Source: an uncultured Candidatus Saccharibacteria bacterium (lineage in GTDB: Bacteria; Patescibacteriota; Minisyncoccia; Phycocordibacterales; JAKAEA01). Taken from it: a stretch of DNA of 64,000 bases. Location of the stretch: contig CAYXSG010000001.1 of NCBI GenBank assembly GCA_964467325.1, positions 8,953-72,952 on the forward strand. The letters are read 5' to 3'. Positions 3,029 to 64,000 of this stretch are shown one piece after another. Below the pieces are notes generated by a model. The model did not search any database. It saw only the letters and a program-made list of their open reading frames with translations, and was not told the DNA's origin. Made by a program: the position numbers and the translations under genes. Numbering within the stretch: the first letter of the stretch is position 1; each line of letters begins with the position of its first letter.

Positions 3029-3631
3029 ATGAAACGGTTCTGCTTTTTGGCGGCGGTTCTATTTTTCGCGGCAATGTCTGGAGTTCGGCCAGCTTCGGCA
3101 AGCATCATCTGGAGCGACGGCTTTGAGTCGGGGAATTTCTCGGCTTGGAGCGCCACCTCCGGAGGTTGGACGGTGGTCACTTCCACGCTCGCGGCTCATT
3201 CGGGCCTCAAAGGTGCAGACGTGAAAGGCGCGAGTTTGGCAAATGGCGACATGCTTGCTGTTTCGGTTTCTTCTGCGGGCAGCGAAAATTTGCACTGGCA
3301 ATATTGGTTCAAAGTGCGCGATGCGCTTGAATCGGCTGATTCGGTTTTTGCCGAATGGACAGCAAATGGCGCCGACTGGCAAACTTTGACGCAATACACG
3401 AACGTGGCGACGGGCGATTGGCAATTTGCCGATTTCACTTTGCCGATTGGGGCGAACAATAATCCAAACTTAGGATTTCGTTTTCGCGCCACGCTCGGCA
3501 GCGCGACCGACCGAATGAATTTCGACGACGCCGCACTTTCCGGCACGCCGATTGCGGCTGTACCTGAGCCGTCAAGTTTGCTTGGTCTTGGCGTCTCAGC
3601 CTCTTTGCTCTTTTTCCGCCGGCGGAAATAA
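3029..3631 (+). CDS. PEP-CTERM sorting domain secreted protein
   Basis: Signal peptide; C-terminus VPEPSSLLGLGVSASLLFFRRRK (PEP motif + TM + basic tail); RBS AAAGGAG upstream. Confidence 0.7.
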   Translation: MKRFCFLAAVLFFAAMSGVRPASASIIWSDGFESGNFSAWSATSGGWTVVTSTLAAHSGLKGADVKGASLANGDMLAVSVSSAGSENLHWQYWFKVRDALESADSVFAEWTANGADWQTLTQYTNVATGDWQFADFTLPIGANNNPNLGFRFRATLGSATDRMNFDDAALSGTPIAAVPEPSSLLGLGVSASLLFFRRRK

Positions 3632-3654
3632 TTTCGCGATTGTTCTGTGTTATT

Positions 3655-3689
3655 AAGACTTGGTTGGCGCTGCCACCAAGTCTTTTTTT
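3655..3689 (+). terminator. rho-independent terminator
   Basis: AAGACTTGGT-loop-ACCAAGTCTT hairpin followed by TTTTTTT. Confidence 0.6.
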
Positions 3690-3694
3690 ATAAT

Positions 3695-3723
3695 AAAAAA
3701 CTGCCCGACAACAAGTCGGGCAG
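3695..3723 (-). terminator. rho-independent terminator for the minus-strand gene 3767..4150
   Basis: CTGCCCGAC-aacaa-GTCGGGCAG hairpin with a T-run on the minus strand. Confidence 0.55.
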
Positions 3724-3766
3724 CTAGGCAAGATGCTTGGCTTGGCACCTTGCCTAAGCGGGGAAT

Positions 3767-4926: not shown

Positions 4927-6027
4927 ATGGTTTTCAGGAGAATTGTCGGCTGGTATGAAAAGTACGAGCGACTCGTGTCGTCCGTTTCGCTCGTGGGCGG
5001 TTTCGTCTTTGACGCGATTTTTCTCAAGCGTGTGGATTTGTTCATTGAAAATTTCTGGATTGTCGTGCATCTTTCCATGGCCGCTGTCGGCATTATTGGG
5101 CTCAATATCGTGGAAAAGCGCCGGACGCAAAGCGCGGAAGGCCAGCAAAGTAAAAGCCGCTGGCATTTCTGGCTCATCATTTGGACGCAGTTTGCCTTCG
5201 GCGGCTTGCTTGCGGCCTTTTTGGTTTTCTATTTTCGCAGCACGACTTTTCTGGTCAACTGGCCATTCATCTTCATTTTGGCTGTAGCTTTTGCCGCCAA
5301 TGAAATTTTCAAGAAGCATTATGTTCGGCTGAGCTTTCAAATCAGCTTGTTTTTTCTTTCGGTTTACGCTTTTGCCATCTTTCTCGTGCCGATTCTCATG
5401 CACCGGATCGGCGCTGACGTGTTCGTTATAAGCGGTGCGGCGAGCCTTTTTGTCCTCGGTTTGTTTTTGGCCGGCTTGCGCTTCATTGCCAGAGAGCGCT
5501 TCGTCCAGAGCCGGAAAATTTTATGGTTTAGCATCGCTGGCATCGTCCTCGTGGTGAACTTTTTATATTTTGCCAACTTGATTCCACCGATTCCGATTTC
5601 GCTCAAAGACGCTGGCATTTATCATTCTGTTTTAAAAAACTCAGCCGGAGGCTACACTGCGACAGAGGAAAATCAAACCTGGCTTGGTATTTTTAAGCAA
5701 TATGAAGACTTTAATGATTTTTCCAACGCGCCGGTTTATGCTTACACCGCAATTTTTTCGCCGACCAATTTCGGCGTCAGCGTCATCCACGATTGGCAAT
5801 ATTATGACGAAACAAAAAAGCAATGGATTTCGGTAAGTAAAATTAGACTGCCGATTGTTGGCGGACGAGACGGCGGCTATCGCACCTACTCCAAAAAGAG
5901 CGGCATTTTTCCTGGTCTTTGGCGTGTGGATGTGAAAACTATAGGCGGCCAGCTCATCGGCCGCTTGAAATTCAACGTCATAGAATCTTCTGCACAGCCT
6001 GCGCTTTCCGAAGTTCGGCTGGAATAG
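4927..6027 (+). CDS. hypothetical polytopic membrane protein with C-terminal extracytoplasmic domain
   Basis: About 6 predicted TM helices followed by a roughly 150-aa soluble domain. Confidence 0.5.
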   Translation: MVFRRIVGWYEKYERLVSSVSLVGGFVFDAIFLKRVDLFIENFWIVVHLSMAAVGIIGLNIVEKRRTQSAEGQQSKSRWHFWLIIWTQFAFGGLLAAFLVFYFRSTTFLVNWPFIFILAVAFAANEIFKKHYVRLSFQISLFFLSVYAFAIFLVPILMHRIGADVFVISGAASLFVLGLFLAGLRFIARERFVQSRKILWFSIAGIVLVVNFLYFANLIPPIPISLKDAGIYHSVLKNSAGGYTATEENQTWLGIFKQYEDFNDFSNAPVYAYTAIFSPTNFGVSVIHDWQYYDETKKQWISVSKIRLPIVGGRDGGYRTYSKKSGIFPGLWRVDVKTIGGQLIGRLKFNVIESSAQPALSEVRLE

Positions 6028-55600: not shown

Positions 55601-57679
55601 ATGGCAAAAACTGAAGAAAAAAAAGTGAAGAAAAATGGCTACAGTGCTGAGGATATTCAGGTTCTGGAAGGTTTGGAGCCGGTGCGCAAGCGCCCAGGCA
55701 TGTACATCGGCACCACGGGTCCCGACGGCTTGCATCATTTAATCACCGAAATTTTTGACAACTCCCGCGACGAAGCGATGGGTGGCTACGCGAACGACAT
55801 TGAAATTGCTCTTTTGCCAGGAAATATGGTGCGCGTTGTCGACAACGGCCGAGGCATTCCGGTGGATATTCATAAGCAGACGAAAGTTTCCGCGCTGGAA
55901 ACCATCATGACCACCCTTCATGCCGGTGGCAAGTTTGGCGGCGACGGCTACGCGGTGTCCGGCGGTTTGCACGGCGTCGGCGCTTCGGTCGTGAATGCGC
56001 TTTCCGAATTTACAAGTGTTCGAGTGCACCGAGACGGCGGCGAATATTTTCAAGAGTACGCGCGTGGCAAGCGCAAAGCTTTGGTTAAGAAACTCGGCGC
56101 GTCCAAACTTCACGGCACGATCACTTCTTTCATTCCCGACTTGGAAATTTTCAAAGAAATTAGTTTTGATTTCAACCGAGTTGTTACGCATATGCGCCAG
56201 CAAGCCTACCTCGTGAAAGGTTTGCGCATCAGCGTGATTGACGCGCGCGCTTATGCTGGGAAAATTGACGAGGCGTCAGTGTTCTATCTTCGCGAGCTTG
56301 GTCTCGAAGTGCCATCCATGTCTTTTTATTTCGAAGGCGGACTGCTTTCCTTCGTGGCTTTTTACAATCGCGTTTTGAAGCCGATTCACAAAAATATTTT
56401 TTACATTGAAAAGAAAACCAATGAGTACGAATCGGTGGAAGTGGCGCTTCAGTACGTGGACGACATTTCCGCGCGCATCCTGCCTTTCGCCAACAACATT
56501 TTCAACTCCGAAGGTGGCACGCACATCACCGGTTTCAAAACCGCGCTCACTCGCACGCTCAACGCTTACGGCCGCAAGAACGGTTTGATTAAAGAATCGG
56601 AGGACAATTTTACCGGCGAAGACGTTTTGGAAGGTTTGACTGCCGTGATTTCTGTGAAAATTCGCGAAATTCAATTTGAAGGTCAGACAAAAGCCAAACT
56701 CGGCACGGTGGAAGCGCGCGGCATGGTGGAAACGGTTTTCGGTGAAGCCTTTGACGCATTTCTGGAAGAAAATCCCGACGATGCAAAATCTATCATCAAT
56801 AAAGTGGTGCTCGCGCTCAAAGCGCGCAAAGCTGCAAAAGCTGCGAAAGATTCTGTGCTCCGAAAAGGTGCGCTAGAAGGCATGACTTTGCCGGGCAAAC
56901 TCGCCGACTGCGCGAGCGGCACCTCGGCAGAAGAATCTGAGCTGTTCATTGTGGAAGGAGATTCCGCCGGCGGCACGGCAAAAATGGGTCGCGACCGCCG
57001 CACCCAAGCCATCCTGCCTTTGCGCGGTAAAATTCTCAACGTGGAACGCGCGCGCTTGGACAAAATGCTCGGCTCGGAACAAATTAAAAATCTCGTGGTG
57101 GCGCTCGGCACGGCCATTGGCGACACTTTTGACATCAGCAAGCTTCGCTACCATAAAGTGATTATCGCCACCGATGCCGACGTGGACGGTGCGCACATTC
57201 GTACACTCATTCTCACGCTGCTTTACCGATTTTTCCGGCCGCTCATCGACGGCGGTTACATCTACATCGCTCAGCCACCGCTGTTCAAAATTAAGAAAGG
57301 CAAAGAAATTTTCTACGCCTACGACGAAAAAGAAAAAATCAAATTCGCCGGCGATGACGCGCCCACCTTGGAAGAAATCAGCGAAGACCAGGAGCCGAAT
57401 GAAGGCGACGAAAAAGCGGAAGACGAAGATGAAGCATCAGAAAAAGCTGTTAAGAGAGTTCCGAAAATTTCTGTTCAGCGCTACAAAGGTTTGGGCGAAA
57501 TGAACTCCGAAGAGCTTTGGGAAACCACGATGGATCCGAAGCATCGCGTCCTCAAGCGCGTCACTGTTTCCGATGCGCAAGACGCCGACAAAGTCTTTGA
57601 TATCCTAATGGGTACCGACGTTCCCGCCCGAAAATCCTTCATTCAATCCAACGCCAATAAGGCTAATATTGATATTTAA
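55601..57679 (+). CDS. gyrB: DNA gyrase subunit B
   Basis: GHKL ATPase (LHHLITEIFDNSRDEAMGG), TOPRIM (EGDSAGG), C-terminal QRYKGLGEM. Confidence 0.95.
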   Translation: MAKTEEKKVKKNGYSAEDIQVLEGLEPVRKRPGMYIGTTGPDGLHHLITEIFDNSRDEAMGGYANDIEIALLPGNMVRVVDNGRGIPVDIHKQTKVSALETIMTTLHAGGKFGGDGYAVSGGLHGVGASVVNALSEFTSVRVHRDGGEYFQEYARGKRKALVKKLGASKLHGTITSFIPDLEIFKEISFDFNRVVTHMRQQAYLVKGLRISVIDARAYAGKIDEASVFYLRELGLEVPSMSFYFEGGLLSFVAFYNRVLKPIHKNIFYIEKKTNEYESVEVALQYVDDISARILPFANNIFNSEGGTHITGFKTALTRTLNAYGRKNGLIKESEDNFTGEDVLEGLTAVISVKIREIQFEGQTKAKLGTVEARGMVETVFGEAFDAFLEENPDDAKSIINKVVLALKARKAAKAAKDSVLRKGALEGMTLPGKLADCASGTSAEESELFIVEGDSAGGTAKMGRDRRTQAILPLRGKILNVERARLDKMLGSEQIKNLVVALGTAIGDTFDISKLRYHKVIIATDADVDGAHIRTLILTLLYRFFRPLIDGGYIYIAQPPLFKIKKGKEIFYAYDEKEKIKFAGDDAPTLEEISEDQEPNEGDEKAEDEDEASEKAVKRVPKISVQRYKGLGEMNSEELWETTMDPKHRVLKRVTVSDAQDADKVFDILMGTDVPARKSFIQSNANKANIDI

Positions 57680-57684
57680 TTCGT

Positions 57685-58032
57685 ATGGAAAGAGAATATA
57701 AAGGCACAATAGTAGAGGAAAGTTTAGAAGACAATAGAATACTTAATGGTGTTGAAATTGTTGGATTCAGAATATCAAAAAACGAAAACCCGCAAGATAG
57801 ATGGCATCTTTACACTGTAAAAGTATCAAAAGAAGATATTAAGAAAATATCCAAATATATAAAATTGGGTAAGTGGTATATGCACTTTTGGAAAGATAAA
57901 GATGTTTTCGCCGTTTTTAAGAATAAAGTTTTTGGGTTCAAATATGATAACAAATCTACTTGGAAGGATGCGGTTGAATATGGATTATCACTTGGTATCC
58001 CTAAAGAGCAACTTGATTTTGTAATTGAGTAG
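57685..58032 (+). CDS. AT-rich hypothetical protein immediately 3' of gyrB
   Basis: 5-nt gap after gyrB; about 30% GC; no recognisable domain. Confidence 0.4.
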   Translation: MEREYKGTIVEESLEDNRILNGVEIVGFRISKNENPQDRWHLYTVKVSKEDIKKISKYIKLGKWYMHFWKDKDVFAVFKNKVFGFKYDNKSTWKDAVEYGLSLGIPKEQLDFVIE

Positions 58033-58076
58033 GTATAAGATATAACCACGTTCGCCACGACGGTGGCACCGGAGAT

Positions 58077-58260
58077 CCCCCCCAGTTTTCTGGGGGGAAT
58101 CGTTTTATAAAAAATCCGAAATCACCCCCAACTCAGAACCCCTGCGGCTCGCAGACTCGCCACTCCCCTTTATCTAAAGGGGAGATACCGACTTGCTAAC
58201 AAACTCTTATGCAAGTTCTTCTCTCCTCTTTAGACAAAGAGGAGTGGCCTTCTTAGGCCG
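58077..58260. other. hairpin-dense noncoding region (candidate structured ncRNA / operator array)
   Basis: Perfect hairpins CCCCCCAG-tttt-CTGGGGGG (58077-58097), CTCCCCTTTA-tc-TAAAGGGGAG (58163-58184), CTCCTCTTTA-gac-AAAGAGGAG (58223-58244), GGCCT-tctt-AGGCC (58246-58259). Confidence 0.3.
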
Positions 58261-58341
58261 AGGTGTTCTGAATTCTAGATAAAATCTTTCTAAAGCCTTG
58301 TAAACAGTCTGGCTGGTTTGGGCGTGGTAGACTGGGTGAAT

Positions 58342-59991
58342 ATGACTCAAAAGCAAGCGCTGGAGATTTTGAAGATGGGGAAAAATGTGTTTGTGACCGG
58401 CGCGGCGGGCAGCGGCAAGACACATCTGATCAATCAGTACATAAAATATTTGCGGGAGTTTGACGTGGACATCGGCGTGACGGCGTCCACAGGAATTGCG
58501 GCGACGCACATGGGCGGCGTGACGATTCATTCGTGGAGCGGCATGGGCGTGAAGGCCGATTTGTCGGCGTACGACTTGGAAGCGTTGGAAGAAAAATCTT
58601 ATTTATGGAAAAGGTTTGAGCGCGTGAAGGTTTTGATTATTGATGAAGTTTCCATGCTTCATCATTTCCGGTTGGATTTGGTGGACAAAATTTTGCGGAC
58701 GATGAAACGCAATGACGAGCCGTTTGGCGGGATTCAAGTCGTGCTTTGCGGCGACTTTTTCCAACTGCCGCCGGTCGCGCGCGCTGACGAGCCGGAAGCT
58801 AAGTTTGTGTACCGAGCAAAAGCGTGGCGCGAAGCCGGTTTTACAATTTGCTATTTGACGGAGCAGTTTCGCCAGAAAGACGATGCATGCCTTTCCATTT
58901 TAAACGAAATCCGGAGCGGCGAAGTGTCGGACGAAGCGCGTGAGAGTTTGAAAGAAAGATTTAATAAAAAAACTTTGAAGAATGTGGAGCCGACGCGGCT
59001 TTTTACGCACAACGTGGATGTGGATTCGGTGAACTCAAACGAGCTTGGTAAAGTGGAAGCTGAAGAAGCGAGCTACCAAATGGAATCGCGCGGGCGAGAA
59101 ATTTTGGTGGAAGCGCTGAAAAAATCCTGTCTCGCGCCGGAAACTTTGCGTTTGAAAAAAGGTGCTCGTGTGATGTGCGTGAAAAATCATCCGGAGGGCA
59201 TGTATGTGAACGGCACGCTCGGCATTGTCGTTTCCTGTGGCTTCGGCCGAGAATTGATTATTCAAAACGCCGCCGGCCGAAACATCACGATTGAAAAAGC
59301 GTCATGGAAAATTGAGGAAGATGGGAAAGTCAAAGCCGAAATTATTCAATACCCATTACGCTTGGCTTGGGCGATTACGGTGCATAAAAGTCAGGGTATG
59401 AGTTTGGACGCCGTCGAAGTGGATTTGTCCAAGTCATTTGAACCTGGGATGGGTTACGTGGCGCTTTCGCGCGTGCGGACTTTGGACGGTCTCACAATTC
59501 TTGGTATAAACGAAATGGCGCTTGCGGTGCATCCGGAAGTTTTGGAATTTGACGGCGATTTGCGCGCCGCTTCAAAAAAAGCGGAAGGCAATTTGGCTGC
59601 GCTTGAGACAAGAGAGATTGCCGAACAGCAGAAAAAATTCTTGGCGCGCATTCGGCCGCTCGTCAAAGAAAAGAAAATTTCCACTTATGAAAAAACCGCC
59701 ATACTCATTCGCGAACGCAAATCGCTTTCGCAAATGGCTAAAGTGCGGGAAGTGAACACTGAGACGATTCTAAGTCACATTGAAAAAATGCTGGAAGAAG
59801 GCATTTCTTTGGATATTGCCTACTTGCGTCACGATATTTCACCAGCGCATTTTAAAAAAATAGAAGAAGTAATGAAAGACATTCACAAAAAAACCGGCGA
59901 AGTTAAACTTTCGCCGGTGAAATACAAACTCGGCCCAAGCATTTCTTTTGCGGAAATCCGGTTGGTGAGATTGCTTTTAAATTTGAGCTAG
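58342..59991 (+). CDS. Pif1/RecD-like SF1 ATP-dependent DNA helicase
   Basis: Walker A GAAGSGKT, IIDEVSM, GDFFQLPPV, C-terminal VHKSQG motif. Confidence 0.75.
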   Translation: MTQKQALEILKMGKNVFVTGAAGSGKTHLINQYIKYLREFDVDIGVTASTGIAATHMGGVTIHSWSGMGVKADLSAYDLEALEEKSYLWKRFERVKVLIIDEVSMLHHFRLDLVDKILRTMKRNDEPFGGIQVVLCGDFFQLPPVARADEPEAKFVYRAKAWREAGFTICYLTEQFRQKDDACLSILNEIRSGEVSDEARESLKERFNKKTLKNVEPTRLFTHNVDVDSVNSNELGKVEAEEASYQMESRGREILVEALKKSCLAPETLRLKKGARVMCVKNHPEGMYVNGTLGIVVSCGFGRELIIQNAAGRNITIEKASWKIEEDGKVKAEIIQYPLRLAWAITVHKSQGMSLDAVEVDLSKSFEPGMGYVALSRVRTLDGLTILGINEMALAVHPEVLEFDGDLRAASKKAEGNLAALETREIAEQQKKFLARIRPLVKEKKISTYEKTAILIRERKSLSQMAKVREVNTETILSHIEKMLEEGISLDIAYLRHDISPAHFKKIEEVMKDIHKKTGEVKLSPVKYKLGPSISFAEIRLVRLLLNLS

Positions 59992-61431: not shown

Positions 61432-64000
61432 ATGACTAAAGTAAAAATATTTTTCATTTTCTTGACGATGATCGTGATTTCCAGCGCTTGGTTTGGCGCT
61501 TCTTTTGTGAACGCTTCGGGCAATGGCACGCTCACAGTTTGTCTCATGTTCACTGATCACGACAACGACATCGTTCACAGTTTCAATAATTCCAATGTGC
61601 CGAATACCAGTTTTAATGTGCCGATTACGGTTCATAACTCCGACGGCACGGTTAAAGTCATTAAAAATGTTTCGGTCAGCACGGCAGATTTTACGCCGAA
61701 CACACGGATTGTTGGCTTGTCGAACGATGCGCAATGCACCACTTACACTTTGCCGATTAGCGATTATTATTACCGCCGCGAAACAATTTCTGGCACGGGT
61801 GCGGACAAATGGGCGCTCGCTACTTACAACGACGAATACAACAGCCGAGTAAAAACCCTAAATGATTTCTACGATTTGGGTACGACCGATGTTGCTGACC
61901 ACACCATTGTGCTTCATGACGATCGGCCGGACCGCCGGCTGGTGGTGCTCAACCGGTTTAACGATTCTTTTGAAATCATTCCGCCACTTACGGCATCTTG
62001 CAGCGCATTGCCCGCCACAGTTTTTCCAAGCAATCCAGTTACTTGGAAAGCTAATGCTGCCGGCGGTGTTGGTGTGTATACATATTCTTGGATTGGCGCT
62101 TTTAGTTCCACTGCTTCCACAACGGTGACTTCTTTTAGCACAACAGGAGTCAAAAATGCCACGGTTAAAGTTACTTCCGGCACGATGACGGCAACGGCCA
62201 ATTGTAATGTTTCCGTGGTCGCTAGACCGGTTTCAACTGGTACTTTGGTTCTAGACAAAACTGTCTTCAATTCTCACGGCGGTACCAAACAACCATCAGA
62301 CTTTTCTTTCTTCATCGGCAACATCCAAGTACCCCTCGGCCAAGCCAACACTTTAACTCCAGGCACTTACACGGTTCATGAAAATAATTTGCCGGGCTAT
62401 GTTGCTGACGGTTGGACAGGTGATTGCACGGCTGATGGTCACGTGACCATTGCGGCTGGCGATGCAAAACACTGCTCGATTATTAACCGAGACGTGGCGC
62501 CGACCGTGACCACGGGCACGGTGACGCTTACGAAATTTGTAATTAATGACAATGGCGGTACCAAACAGCCTTCCGATTTCAGACTTTATGTTGGCACCAC
62601 TTCGGTAACGAGTGGCGTTTCCACAACGTTCTCTGCGGGCACTTACTCGGTTCACGAAGACAATCTATCCGGCTACACGGCTGGCACTTGGATGGGCGAT
62701 TGTACTACAGACGGTCATGTCACAATTGTTGCGGGCCAAAATAAAAATTGTTCAATAACTAACAACGACATTCGTCAAAATCCTCCGCCTCCGCCACCAC
62801 TATCCACCGGCACTCTCACTCTAGACAAAACTGTCTTCAATTCTCACGGCGGTACCAAACAACCATCAGACTTTTCTTTCTTCATCGGCAACATCCAAGT
62901 ACCCCTCGGCCAAGCCAACACTTTAACTCCAGGCACTTACACGGTTCATGAAAATAATTTGCCGGGCTATGTTGCTGACGGTTGGACAGGCGACTGTGCG
63001 GCTGATGGTCACGTGACCATTGCGGCTGGCGATGCGAAACATTGTTCGATTATTAACCGAGATGTGGAGCAAATTCTGCCACCGCCACCAACACCGCCAT
63101 TTTCCATTTCCTGCGCGGTGTTGAACAACCCAACATCGGTTGACCAAAATACTGTTGTGGCTTGGCAGGTTACGTTTGCTTTCCCAACTAGCAATTCCGA
63201 GGCGTATGTCTACAATGCCACGTATGATTGGTCTGGCACGGACGGTCTGACTGGTACAAATCAAACCGTTACCAAATTATATTCCACCCCAGGCACAAAA
63301 AATGCCAGTGTTATAGTTACGTCGCACAATTCTTCCGGCACGGGATACTACACCACTAGCGCCAGCTGTTCCATTCCGGTTAATCCTCCGCCACCACTGC
63401 CGCTTGGCTGCATCGCCATTCATAAAAGTGCTCTTGATTCCAATGGCGTTGCAATTACGCCAGTGCCAACTTTCGGTTTCAAAGTGGACAATGGCGCGGA
63501 ACTTTTCAACGATAACTCTGGCTTGGCCACCGTCTCTGGCTTAAGTGTCGGCACTCACACTGTGACTGAAACTACGAAAGACGGTTGGACCAATACCAAC
63601 ACTACGCCAACCAACGGCTCGGTCTCGGTAGTTGCAGGCAATCAGTGCGCAGATGTTACTTTTGAAAATAAACAAAATGCGCCGGCTGTGGTTCCGGATA
63701 TAATTGCTTCGTGTTCAGCCAATCCTTCCACTGCCAACATCGGCGACACAGTTACGTATTCGGCGAGTGCTTCCGGTGGCAATGGTTCATTCACCTACGC
63801 TTGGAGCGGCGATGAAAATTTGTCCGGTTCAAATAGTTCGGCCAGCGCCTCCTACACAACTGCCGGCACGAAAAGTGCTACCGTGATTGTGTCTTCAGGC
63901 GGCAAAACGGCCACGGCCAATTGTTCTGCTTCAATTGTTGAAGCCACGCCAACCTTAAATGGTTCATGTGCAGCCAATCCATCGGCAGTTAACACGGGCG
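61432..64000 (+). CDS. very large repetitive secreted surface protein (PKD-like and prealbumin/Cna-B-like repeats), 5' partial, runs off the window
   Basis: Uninterrupted frame from ATG 61432 to the window end (over 855 codons); signal peptide; repeated domains with poly-Pro linkers; immediately downstream of the sortase. Confidence 0.7.
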   Translation, partial: MTKVKIFFIFLTMIVISSAWFGASFVNASGNGTLTVCLMFTDHDNDIVHSFNNSNVPNTSFNVPITVHNSDGTVKVIKNVSVSTADFTPNTRIVGLSNDAQCTTYTLPISDYYYRRETISGTGADKWALATYNDEYNSRVKTLNDFYDLGTTDVADHTIVLHDDRPDRRLVVLNRFNDSFEIIPPLTASCSALPATVFPSNPVTWKANAAGGVGVYTYSWIGAFSSTASTTVTSFSTTGVKNATVKVTSGTMTATANCNVSVVARPVSTGTLVLDKTVFNSHGGTKQPSDFSFFIGNIQVPLGQANTLTPGTYTVHENNLPGYVADGWTGDCTADGHVTIAAGDAKHCSIINRDVAPTVTTGTVTLTKFVINDNGGTKQPSDFRLYVGTTSVTSGVSTTFSAGTYSVHEDNLSGYTAGTWMGDCTTDGHVTIVAGQNKNCSITNNDIRQNPPPPPPLSTGTLTLDKTVFNSHGGTKQPSDFSFFIGNIQVPLGQANTLTPGTYTVHENNLPGYVADGWTGDCAADGHVTIAAGDAKHCSIINRDVEQILPPPPTPPFSISCAVLNNPTSVDQNTVVAWQVTFAFPTSNSEAYVYNATYDWSGTDGLTGTNQTVTKLYSTPGTKNASVIVTSHNSSGTGYYTTSASCSIPVNPPPPLPLGCIAIHKSALDSNGVAITPVPTFGFKVDNGAELFNDNSGLATVSGLSVGTHTVTETTKDGWTNTNTTPTNGSVSVVAGNQCADVTFENKQNAPAVVPDIIASCSANPSTANIGDTVTYSASASGGNGSFTYAWSGDENLSGSNSSASASYTTAGTKSATVIVSSGGKTATANCSASIVEATPTLNGSCAANPSAVNTG
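62251..62497 (+). repeat. intragenic direct repeat, copy 1 (170 bp perfect, about 247 bp at roughly 95%)
   Basis: 62251-62420 identical to 62821-62990. Confidence 0.8.
62821..63067 (+). repeat. intragenic direct repeat, copy 2
   Basis: 570-bp period, encodes a duplicated Cna-B-like domain. Confidence 0.8.

Follow-up and report, generated by a model that had tools for sequence, protein, structure and literature searches.

A probable terminator and a candidate MITE/REPIN-like quasi-palindromic element upstream of a Pif1-like helicase gene in a CPR genome

The window analysed here is a 64-kb stretch of DNA from a Patescibacteria (CPR) genome, in which the gene order pheS, pheT, gyrB (gyrB at 55601-57679) continues with a co-directional gene for an AT-rich 115-aa protein (57685-58032, + strand) and, after an intergenic region of 309 nt, with a gene for a Pif1-like SF1B helicase (58342-59991, + strand). 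The helicase has a PIF1 domain (Pfam, 1.8e-38) and a C-terminal HTH_40 domain (1.8e-14), and on the 3' side of its gene are a gene for a CARDB protein on the opposite strand and then a sortase gene. The two genes bordering the intergenic region are given as context and lie outside the element described below. The original prediction had called the upstream gene an orphan, a description that no longer holds, as the gene has 246 homologues (60-79% identity) in CPR bacteria, DPANN archaea and Bipolaricaulota. The homologues in five other contexts (L208-L212) are members of closely packed arrays of small accessory genes, where the gaps measure 8-15 nt or, once, an unrelated 122 nt, and no hairpin of the type found in the window follows them in any of the five. 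A tie between the hairpins and the 115-aa gene was therefore ruled out. The minus-strand ORF at 58207-58530, which had been considered implausible, has no Pfam match, in agreement with that judgement.

Orthologues of the helicase are widespread in Parcubacteria, and its best matches in Parcubacteria MAGs have at most 68% amino-acid identity. The nearest relative (71% identity) has an S41 peptidase gene upstream, separated by an intergenic region of 48 nt. Among 70 loci of helicase orthologues, gyrB was found upstream in none, and intergenic sequence similarity to the region of the window was likewise found in none. The exact helicase protein of the window was not located on any contig. Contigs of the same species from other metagenomes, which are 99.9-100% identical to the window, end at 57927, 57937 or 58131, or start at 59782, and none of them covers the element. 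The species is present in the metagenomes ERZ27245389, ERZ27245396, ERZ27245405 and ERZ27245407 (ENA) and 3300028563 (JGI). One of these ends, that at 58131, falls within 2 nt of the first base of the element; its position is suggestive, yet it could simply be due to low coverage.

The intergenic region is rich in hairpins. In 58040-58317 there are seven perfect hairpins with stems of at least 5 bp, compared with 2.4 +/- 1.3 expected from 1000 dinucleotide-preserving shuffles, and three stems of at least 8 bp, compared with 0.05 expected from the same shuffles. Folding, which the original prediction had proposed, gave z-scores of -7.7 (+ strand) and -7.9 (- strand) for the 285-nt intergenic stretch, and 58141-58280 ranked as the second most structured of the 140-nt stretches in the window. 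The hairpin cluster is real and far above chance, and the original prediction had understated it. The four perfect stem-loops that it listed are all in place (58078-58097, 58163-58184, 58223-58244 and 58246-58259), but its inventory missed the hairpins at 58054-58067 and 58142-58154, a central hairpin, a 38-nt inverted repeat and a 14-bp outer stem. The first of these additional features is a small perfect hairpin, GCCAC-GACG-GTGGC, without an assigned strand. The four hairpins had also been treated as equivalents; the first is better read as a terminator, and the others as parts of one composite element of 145 nt.

Hairpin 1 (58074-58101, + strand; inverted repeat I4) has the sequence GATCCCCCCCAG-TTTT-CTGGGGGGAATC followed by GTTTTAT. 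The terminator scan reported its core, CCCCCCAG/CTGGGGGG, at 58078-58097 on the + strand, with eight pairs, of which seven are G-C, a loop of 4 nt and a tail rich in T. An intrinsic (Rho-independent) terminator has a G+C-rich stem-loop and, immediately 3' of it, a T tract; hairpin 1 has this form, with a AATCGTTTTA tail, and the sequence on its 3' side is AATCGTTTTAT. The hairpin is located 42 nt past the stop codon of the co-directional pair of gyrB and the small gene, and is the sole terminator-like site on the + strand in the region. The other terminators of this genome are canonical and have clear T tracts (for example, the back-to-back pair at 3632-3766), whereas a T tract is missing from the hairpins named P1, P2, h_a and h_e of the composite element; h_e was flagged as a terminator on the - strand, with a weak tail. 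This difference led us to read hairpin 1 as the operon terminator and the remaining hairpins as something separate. Judging from its shape and position, hairpin 1 is probably the intrinsic terminator of the gyrB/small-gene operon. The earlier view that the two related palindromes, P1 and P2, are not canonical terminators was correct.

The composite element is quasi-palindromic, occupies 58130-58274 and has no assigned strand. Its outer stem of 14 bp, with 12 of the 14 positions complementary, is formed by the 5' arm AACTCAGAACCCCT (58130-58143; inverted repeat I3), which includes the motif AACCCCT of the family described below, and the 3' arm AGGTGTTCTGAATT (58261-58274), which matches the family motif AGGGGTT with one mismatch. 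The left end module (58135-58186, + strand) consists of the AACCCCT motif, the small hairpin h_a (58142-58154, CTGCG-GCT-CGCAG), which matches the covarying helix of the family, and the 22-nt palindrome P1 (58163-58184, CTCCCCTTT-ATCT-AAAGGGGAG). The right end module (58221-58269, - strand) is an inverted copy of the left one, and consists of AACACCT (one mismatch), the small hairpin h_e (58246-58259, GGCCT-TCTT-AGGCC), which is not complementary to h_a, and the 22-nt palindrome P2 (58223-58244, CTCCTCTTT-AGAC-AAAGAGGAG). The central hairpin, GACTTGC-(14 nt)-GCAAGTT, is located at 58190-58217 and has a 7-bp stem and a 14-nt loop; the core of the element is 38 nt long.

P1 and P2 each have a 9-bp stem and a 4-nt loop. 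As originally described, they are related palindromes whose starts are 60 bp apart, and they differ by one compensated change of a C-G pair to a T-A pair, with the pairing of each hairpin kept. The pattern CTCCYCTTTN4AAAGRGGAG, with up to three mismatches, matched only P1 and P2 (58163 and 58223) in the 64 kb, where 0.06 matches were expected. The longest inverted repeat of the window, with arms of 38 nt (58159-58196 and 58211-58248), 82% complementarity and a gap of 14 nt, makes P1 and P2 the arms of one long hairpin. Two folds of the element are possible. The thermodynamically preferred one, with the minimum energy, is a single long imperfect hairpin (-72 to -79 kcal/mol as RNA); in the other, the outer stem closes a row of five local hairpins (about -54 kcal/mol). 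P1 is flanked by GCCA and ATAC, and P2 by TTCT and TGGC, with no GTAG or CGTC at either palindrome. No direct repeat (target-site duplication) was seen flanking 58130-58274.

The original prediction had proposed a search for further copies of the palindrome. None other exists in the 64-kb window, but a scan of metagenome contigs with the exact palindrome pattern returned at least 120 loci, and the description of the family below is drawn from the matches listed. The pattern was present in 11 viral contigs, in some of which the palindrome is located on the 3' side of a gene. Note that part of the palindrome matches are ordinary terminators or ribosome-binding-site hairpins. A CCCCT/AGGGG motif was found within 40 nt of the palindrome in 61% of the matches listed, compared with 8% of random windows from the same loci. 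The common order in an end module is (T/A)AACCCCTC, a small hairpin with a stem of 3-7 bp, usually TA, and then the palindrome. Complete elements consist of two mutually inverted end modules with a centre of between 38 and about 300 nt; nested insertions occur in some, and the copies also include solo ends and tandem ends. The copies occupy intergenic positions, frequently right next to a stop codon. There are several per contig, in both orientations, and their neighbours are unrelated housekeeping genes; no recurrent protein family was found beside them. A termite-gut subfamily belongs to Dysgonomonadaceae-like genomes, and the adjacent patB has its best named matches in Dysgonamonadaceae (75%) and Proteiniphilum (66-68%). 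Dysgonomonadaceae-type copies have GGTA directly before the palindrome, and neither GTAG nor CGTC. Many family copies end with TAACCCC...GGGGTTA, in which a TA duplication is indistinguishable from the inverted repeat.

Neither the element of the window nor a family copy had a match in the plasmid database, and the sequence strings of the element had no meaningful match in the literature, where the papers on REP and MITE elements contained no matching sequence. One locus (L179) gave the first impression of a composite element, which was dropped on inspection, and no convincing long-range pair of end motifs around a coding region was found.

We aligned 17 end modules, with the window excluded, for an analysis of covariation. 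The three alignable pairs of the small helix all showed changes on both sides (pair counts: CG 8/GC 7; CG 7/UA 4/GC 3/GU 1; CG 11/GC 5/AU 1), and its covariation score was reached by none of 500 shuffles and collapsed in slid controls. Paired cells made up 98% of the helix, a percentage inflated by the choice of modules, which were picked after seeing that they had room for a hairpin (21 of 25 candidates had the hairpin). The left and right small hairpins in copies L161 and L128a, as well as h_a and h_e in the window, are locally palindromic and not complementary to each other, from which we conclude that the local hairpins are maintained and not only the long fold-back. The structure of the end module is conserved in the family, not its sequence alone.

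The covariance model R1 was built from the same 17 end modules, again without the window. When the 64 kb were searched with R1, exactly two significant full-length matches were found, inverted to each other: the left match at 58135-58186 (+ strand; 41.8 bits, E 8e-9) and the right match at 58221-58269 (- strand; 34.5 bits, E 6e-7), with the next-best match in the window at 11.6 bits. P1 alone scored 24.7 bits and P2 alone 17.1 bits; about 17 bits per end thus come from the small hairpin and the outer motif, neither of which had been used in the original palindrome search. The central hairpin also has the geometry seen in the Dysgonomonadaceae-type copies L081 and L128a: it starts 5 nt past P1, and its stem of 7 bp encloses a loop of 14 nt. 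The element of the window is a member of the family; its overall identity to the Dysgonomonadaceae-type copies is about 60%, a value dominated by the search motif, and indicates a divergent member. No copy was found with R1 in about 630 kb of other related CPR DNA. The small hairpin covaries across the family, and the element is missing at all 70 orthologous helicase loci.

The family behaves as inserted DNA. At the locus L128, with the gene order topoisomerase-IV-like gene, DUF3316, patB, a 135-nt element is present in each of the two intergenic regions, whereas the same intergenic regions in the syntenic L216 and L217 are 52 and 6 nt long and contain no R1 match (the proteins of L128 have 78%, 68% and 75% amino-acid identity to those of L216/L217). 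The opposition of filled and empty sites establishes that the Dysgonomonadaceae copies are insertions relative to the syntenic genome. A further locus, L218, has a different palindrome of about 90 nt at the second intergenic site. As for a mobilising enzyme, one family-bearing contig (L157) encodes an IS200/IS605 Y1_Tnp protein (tnpA) and a TnpB-like ORF near the copy; the co-occurrence is a single case and anecdotal, and the hairpin beside this tnpA is not a P-type palindrome. No match to IS200 TnpA was found in the 64-kb window by tblastn, and no transposase linked to the family was found among the neighbouring proteins. The window contains one copy, and for this genome the element is a candidate repeat.

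On balance, we consider that the region probably comprises a terminator (58074-58101) and one copy of a non-coding, MITE/REPIN-like, quasi-palindromic interspersed repeat (58130-58274). This is the miniature palindromic repeat element that the original prediction had offered as one of its alternatives, and it is the one favoured by the recurrence of the end module, the R1 matches and the insertion polymorphism. In its architecture, a short central hairpin lies between two end modules that are inverted to each other, and the outer stem closes the whole; each module consists of the AACCCCT(C) motif, a small variable hairpin and a palindrome with a 9-bp stem and a 4-nt loop, CTCCYCTTT-N4-AAAGRGGAG. 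The copy in the window may have arrived by transposition or horizontal transfer rather than evolved in place, and horizontal acquisition is possible because the related CPR DNA does not contain the family. A transposase supplied in trans would recognise the ends in their folded, single-stranded form, much as in REP/RAYT or IS200/IS605 systems, a proposal based on the small hairpin, whose sequence varies with its pairing intact. Here the element would have no dedicated regulatory role, and at most it may be a passive structure, of RNA or DNA, that spaces the helicase gene from the terminator.

An alternative in which the element is a structured RNA, such as a small RNA gene, a 5' leader or a 3' stabiliser (for example, an RNase barrier or a device for translational control of the helicase), seems to us unlikely. 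The very stable folds of both strands are consistent with it, as are the position of the element about 70 nt upstream of the helicase start codon, with no sigma-70-like promoter predicted in the intergenic region between them and with a poor fit of promoter candidates picked by hand, and the location of the palindrome 3' of a gene in part of the viral contigs. A function at the RNA level would equally account for the covariation of the small hairpin in the family. However, the Rfam scan that had been proposed found nothing in the region at threshold, its only hits at threshold being two tRNAs in the whole window and tRNAs in 20 family loci. Moreover, family copies have no preferred orientation to the neighbouring genes (in a set of 17 copies from one subfamily, those with co-directional neighbours are 5 in sense and 4 in antisense orientation), the element is missing from orthologous helicase loci, two-fold symmetry is not needed for an RNA, and the insertion polymorphism fits mobility of DNA. 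These results argue against the small structured RNA of the original prediction.

Alternatively, the cluster may consist of terminators or RNA-stability hairpins that arose locally, with the likeness to the family a matter of convergence on C4/G4-rich hairpins, although we regard this as quite improbable. Hairpin 1 is indeed terminator-like, long and strong terminator hairpins are frequent in the intergenic regions of Parcubacteria, and similarity of the palindromes is guaranteed by the search motif itself. Yet the four hairpins P1, P2, h_a and h_e differ from the terminators of the genome in having no T tract, the outer motif and the small hairpin contribute their bits beyond the palindrome at both ends, and the central hairpin has the geometry of the family copies.

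We consider it very unlikely that P1 and P2 are paired operators through which a dimeric protein, perhaps by way of the helicase's own HTH_40 domain, controls the helicase promoter, as the original prediction had proposed for a regulator of the helicase. The appeal of this explanation is that the helicase, itself an HTH_40 protein, is encoded downstream of two perfect 22-bp palindromes that share a consensus and are spaced 60 bp apart. Nevertheless, neither a comparable palindrome nor an R1 match was found at any of the 70 orthologous helicase loci (0/70), and the same palindrome with its flanking modules occurs in Bacteroidales and other genomes beside unrelated genes. The change between P1 and P2 affects both half-sites and keeps the hairpin pairing, which is unexpected for protein contacts, and five further hairpins and the outer stem would be left unexplained. 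The spacing of 60 bp corresponds to about 5.7 helical turns, which means that P1 and P2 would not lie on the same face of the helix. An integron-type attC site after a mobile gene cassette (the AT-rich small gene) is hardly credible: the small gene is AT-rich and spread widely across phyla, and an imperfect palindrome of attC-like length with ends ...AAC / GTT... does follow it, but these ends (TCAGAAC / GTTCTGA) agree with RYYYAAC / GTTRRRY only in AAC and GTT, the gene and the element are 98 nt apart with a terminator hairpin between them, the gaps of 8-15 nt in the arrays of the small-gene homologues are too short for attC sites, and no second site was found in the 64-kb window.

The reading as a terminator and an interspersed repeat has practical consequences. 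For annotation of the region we advise the labels terminator and repeat element rather than operator or small RNA, and we propose no new regulatory mechanism for the Pif1-like helicase or gyrB at this locus. The most likely explanation of the locus is an ordinary one, and the remaining interest is in the family: one end module, with a hairpin kept by compensatory change, is common to Dysgonomonadaceae (Bacteroidales), several environmental genomes and the genome of the window, and R1 is a concrete means to survey genomes for it. A bolder proposal, which we put forward tentatively and with considerable doubt, is that the end module (AACCCCTC, the covarying mini-hairpin and CTCCCCTTT-N4-AAAGGGGAG) defines an undescribed cross-phylum family, extending from Bacteroidota to Patescibacteria and some viral contigs, whose folded single strand would be recognised by a putative transposase in a REP/RAYT-like manner without the GTAG/CGTC tag, or which would have a conserved function at the RNA level; the copy in the window would then be a rare trace of entry into a reduced CPR genome. 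If one enzyme family recognises the module, the REP/RAYT idea of miniature mobile DNA recognised through a hairpin would extend past the GTAG/CGTC classes, and the window would exemplify such DNA in a CPR genome, with about 630 kb of related CPR DNA free of it.

Among known systems, the best Rfam match of the region at a permissive threshold was the wcaG RNA motif (RF01761, - strand), which resembles the element in having two hairpins and then a GUGGCGAG-like tail, but the score was 26.5 bits against a gathering score of 42, and the hairpin sequences and the context are unrelated. The sub-threshold matches to wcaG and to microRNA precursors were dismissed as generic similarity of long hairpins. 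The elements of the IS200/IS605 family and their derivatives, whose subterminal hairpins are recognised by Y1 HUH transposases as single-stranded DNA, share with the family described here end hairpins that keep structure and not sequence, but their ends are asymmetric, the left differing from the right, and are not inverted copies. Like the family, MITEs are small (130-200 nt) and non-coding and have a variable core bounded by inverted, structured ends, and the element of the window has such terminal inverted repeats (the R1 ends) around its 38-nt non-coding core; family copies also show nested insertions, solo and tandem ends, multiple copies per contig, and a filled versus an empty site. The general definition of a MITE would fit, except that neither a target-site duplication nor a parent insertion sequence with ends like these is visible, and the family ends keep hairpin pairing by compensatory change, which inverted repeats recognised as duplex do not need.

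The closest described kind is that of the REP, REPIN and BIME elements, with which the element shares a short palindromic unit, an inverted doublet with a spacer, alternative folds, an intergenic location and occurrence in either orientation. REP dimers have been described as inverted doublets of short palindromes with a spacer of 20-100 bp, in which a stem-loop may be present; the two units can be heterodimers with unlike stems and loops, the doublet can fold into separate hairpins or into one large stem-loop, and at times it is part of a longer palindrome (PMC3733652, PMC3116915). The 22-nt palindromes of the window agree with the unit length of 20-40 bp for REP/REPIN elements, their 9-bp stem and 4-nt loop are within the range of CGTC-type REPs, and the two inverted units with their spacer are able to form one long hairpin. 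REPs are defined by a tag, GTAG or CGTC, that is unpaired and located at one end of the palindrome (PMC3733652), whereas the element of the window has no such tag beside its palindromes, and each of its ends has in addition a conserved motif (AACCCCTC) and a further small hairpin, which covaries. REPs and REPINs number tens to hundreds per genome and go with a single-copy RAYT (Y1 transposase) gene that REPs flank; in the 64-kb window the element is present in one copy and no RAYT gene was seen. The family spans Bacteroidota and a Patescibacteria genome. On account of the missing tag and of the extra motif and second hairpin at each end, we filed the element as a new family of interspersed palindromic (REPIN/MITE-like) elements and not as a REP.

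The small gene at 57685-58032 (+), which lies 3' of gyrB, was described as an orphan in the original prediction, but searches recovered 246 homologues with 60-79% identity, and the gene thus belongs to a strongly conserved family. The proteins of this family are 113-118 amino acids long and, judging from source names, their hosts are Patescibacteria, DPANN archaea and Bipolaricaulota. The genes are usually found in tight same-strand arrays with small accessory genes (NUDIX, glyoxalase, GrpB and methyltransferases). The protein had no match in Pfam or NCBIfam; its AlphaFold model was confident (pLDDT 90.8), and a Foldseek search of the PDB with this model gave no match at E < 0.05.

Three contigs of the same species from independent assemblies, 99.9-100% identical to the window, all end within the small gene or shortly 3' of it (57927, 57937 and 58131), the last of these ends being 2 nt inside the 145-nt quasi-palindromic repeat at 58130-58274 (the palindromic element). 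None of these contigs spans 58132-59781. Strain variation at this site could explain the coincidence of the ends, as could low coverage across the AT-rich gene. Between the small gene and the palindromic element, the sequence contains a direct repeat, GAGATCCCCCCCA at 58072-58084 and GAAATCACCCCCA at 58118-58130, the first copy of which forms the 5' arm of the probable terminator hairpin (58074-58101). The second directly precedes the palindromic element. With this arrangement, the G-rich 3' arm of the hairpin (58090-58101) would in principle have two alternative pairing partners.

Elsewhere in the window, the top-ranking stretch for structure was 3632-3766, where convergent genes are separated by canonical terminators, arranged back-to-back and bearing T and A tracts, and by a third hairpin at 3725-3756. 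Secondary alignments of two other contigs (L074 and L075) point to an internal repeat, about 248 bp long and about 96% identical, at 62250-62497 and 62820-63067, 3' of the sortase gene. Very stable long hairpins, unrelated to the palindromic element, were also found 5' of the orthologues of the window's Pif1-like helicase (58342-59991, +) in four Parcubacteria loci (L005, L006, L041 and L048), including perfect stems of 17 bp and 21 bp in L005 and a hairpin arm of about 20 bp in L006. In this group, intergenic regions rich in hairpins seem to be frequent.

The metagenomic elements that carry the 22-nt P palindrome (CTCCYCTTT-N4-AAAGRGGAG) in inverted end modules are here called the family. The intergenic region between DUF3316 and patB, compared among syntenic Dysgonomonadaceae-type contigs, contains a family element in L128, only 6 nt in L217, and in L218 (866-980) a palindrome of about 90 nt with perfect arms (GGAACACGAAGACGCTAAGTTGCTAAG...) that is distinct from the family; this site has therefore been the target of two unrelated hairpin elements. 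In the centre of two family elements (L114, about 3045-3110; L152, about 5960-6025) sits a separate long hairpin, GTCATTTCGAC...GTCGAAATGAC, suggesting that a different small palindromic element inserts into members of the family. In six related, mostly viral contigs (L079, L192, L197, L199, L201 and L206), a single P palindrome lies about 50 nt 3' of a conserved 397-aa gene and has the outer motif CCCCACC / GGTGGGG; viral genomes therefore also contain the family or its motif.

One further contig (L157) bears both a family copy (17-53) and an IS200/IS605-type tnpA (3110-3538; Pfam Y1_Tnp, 2e-43). The hairpin just 5' of this tnpA, CCCCTAGC-TTTA-GCTATGGGG, is C4/G4-rich but is not a P palindrome, and the ORF 3' of tnpA looked, from its N-terminal translation, like a putative TnpB-like gene.
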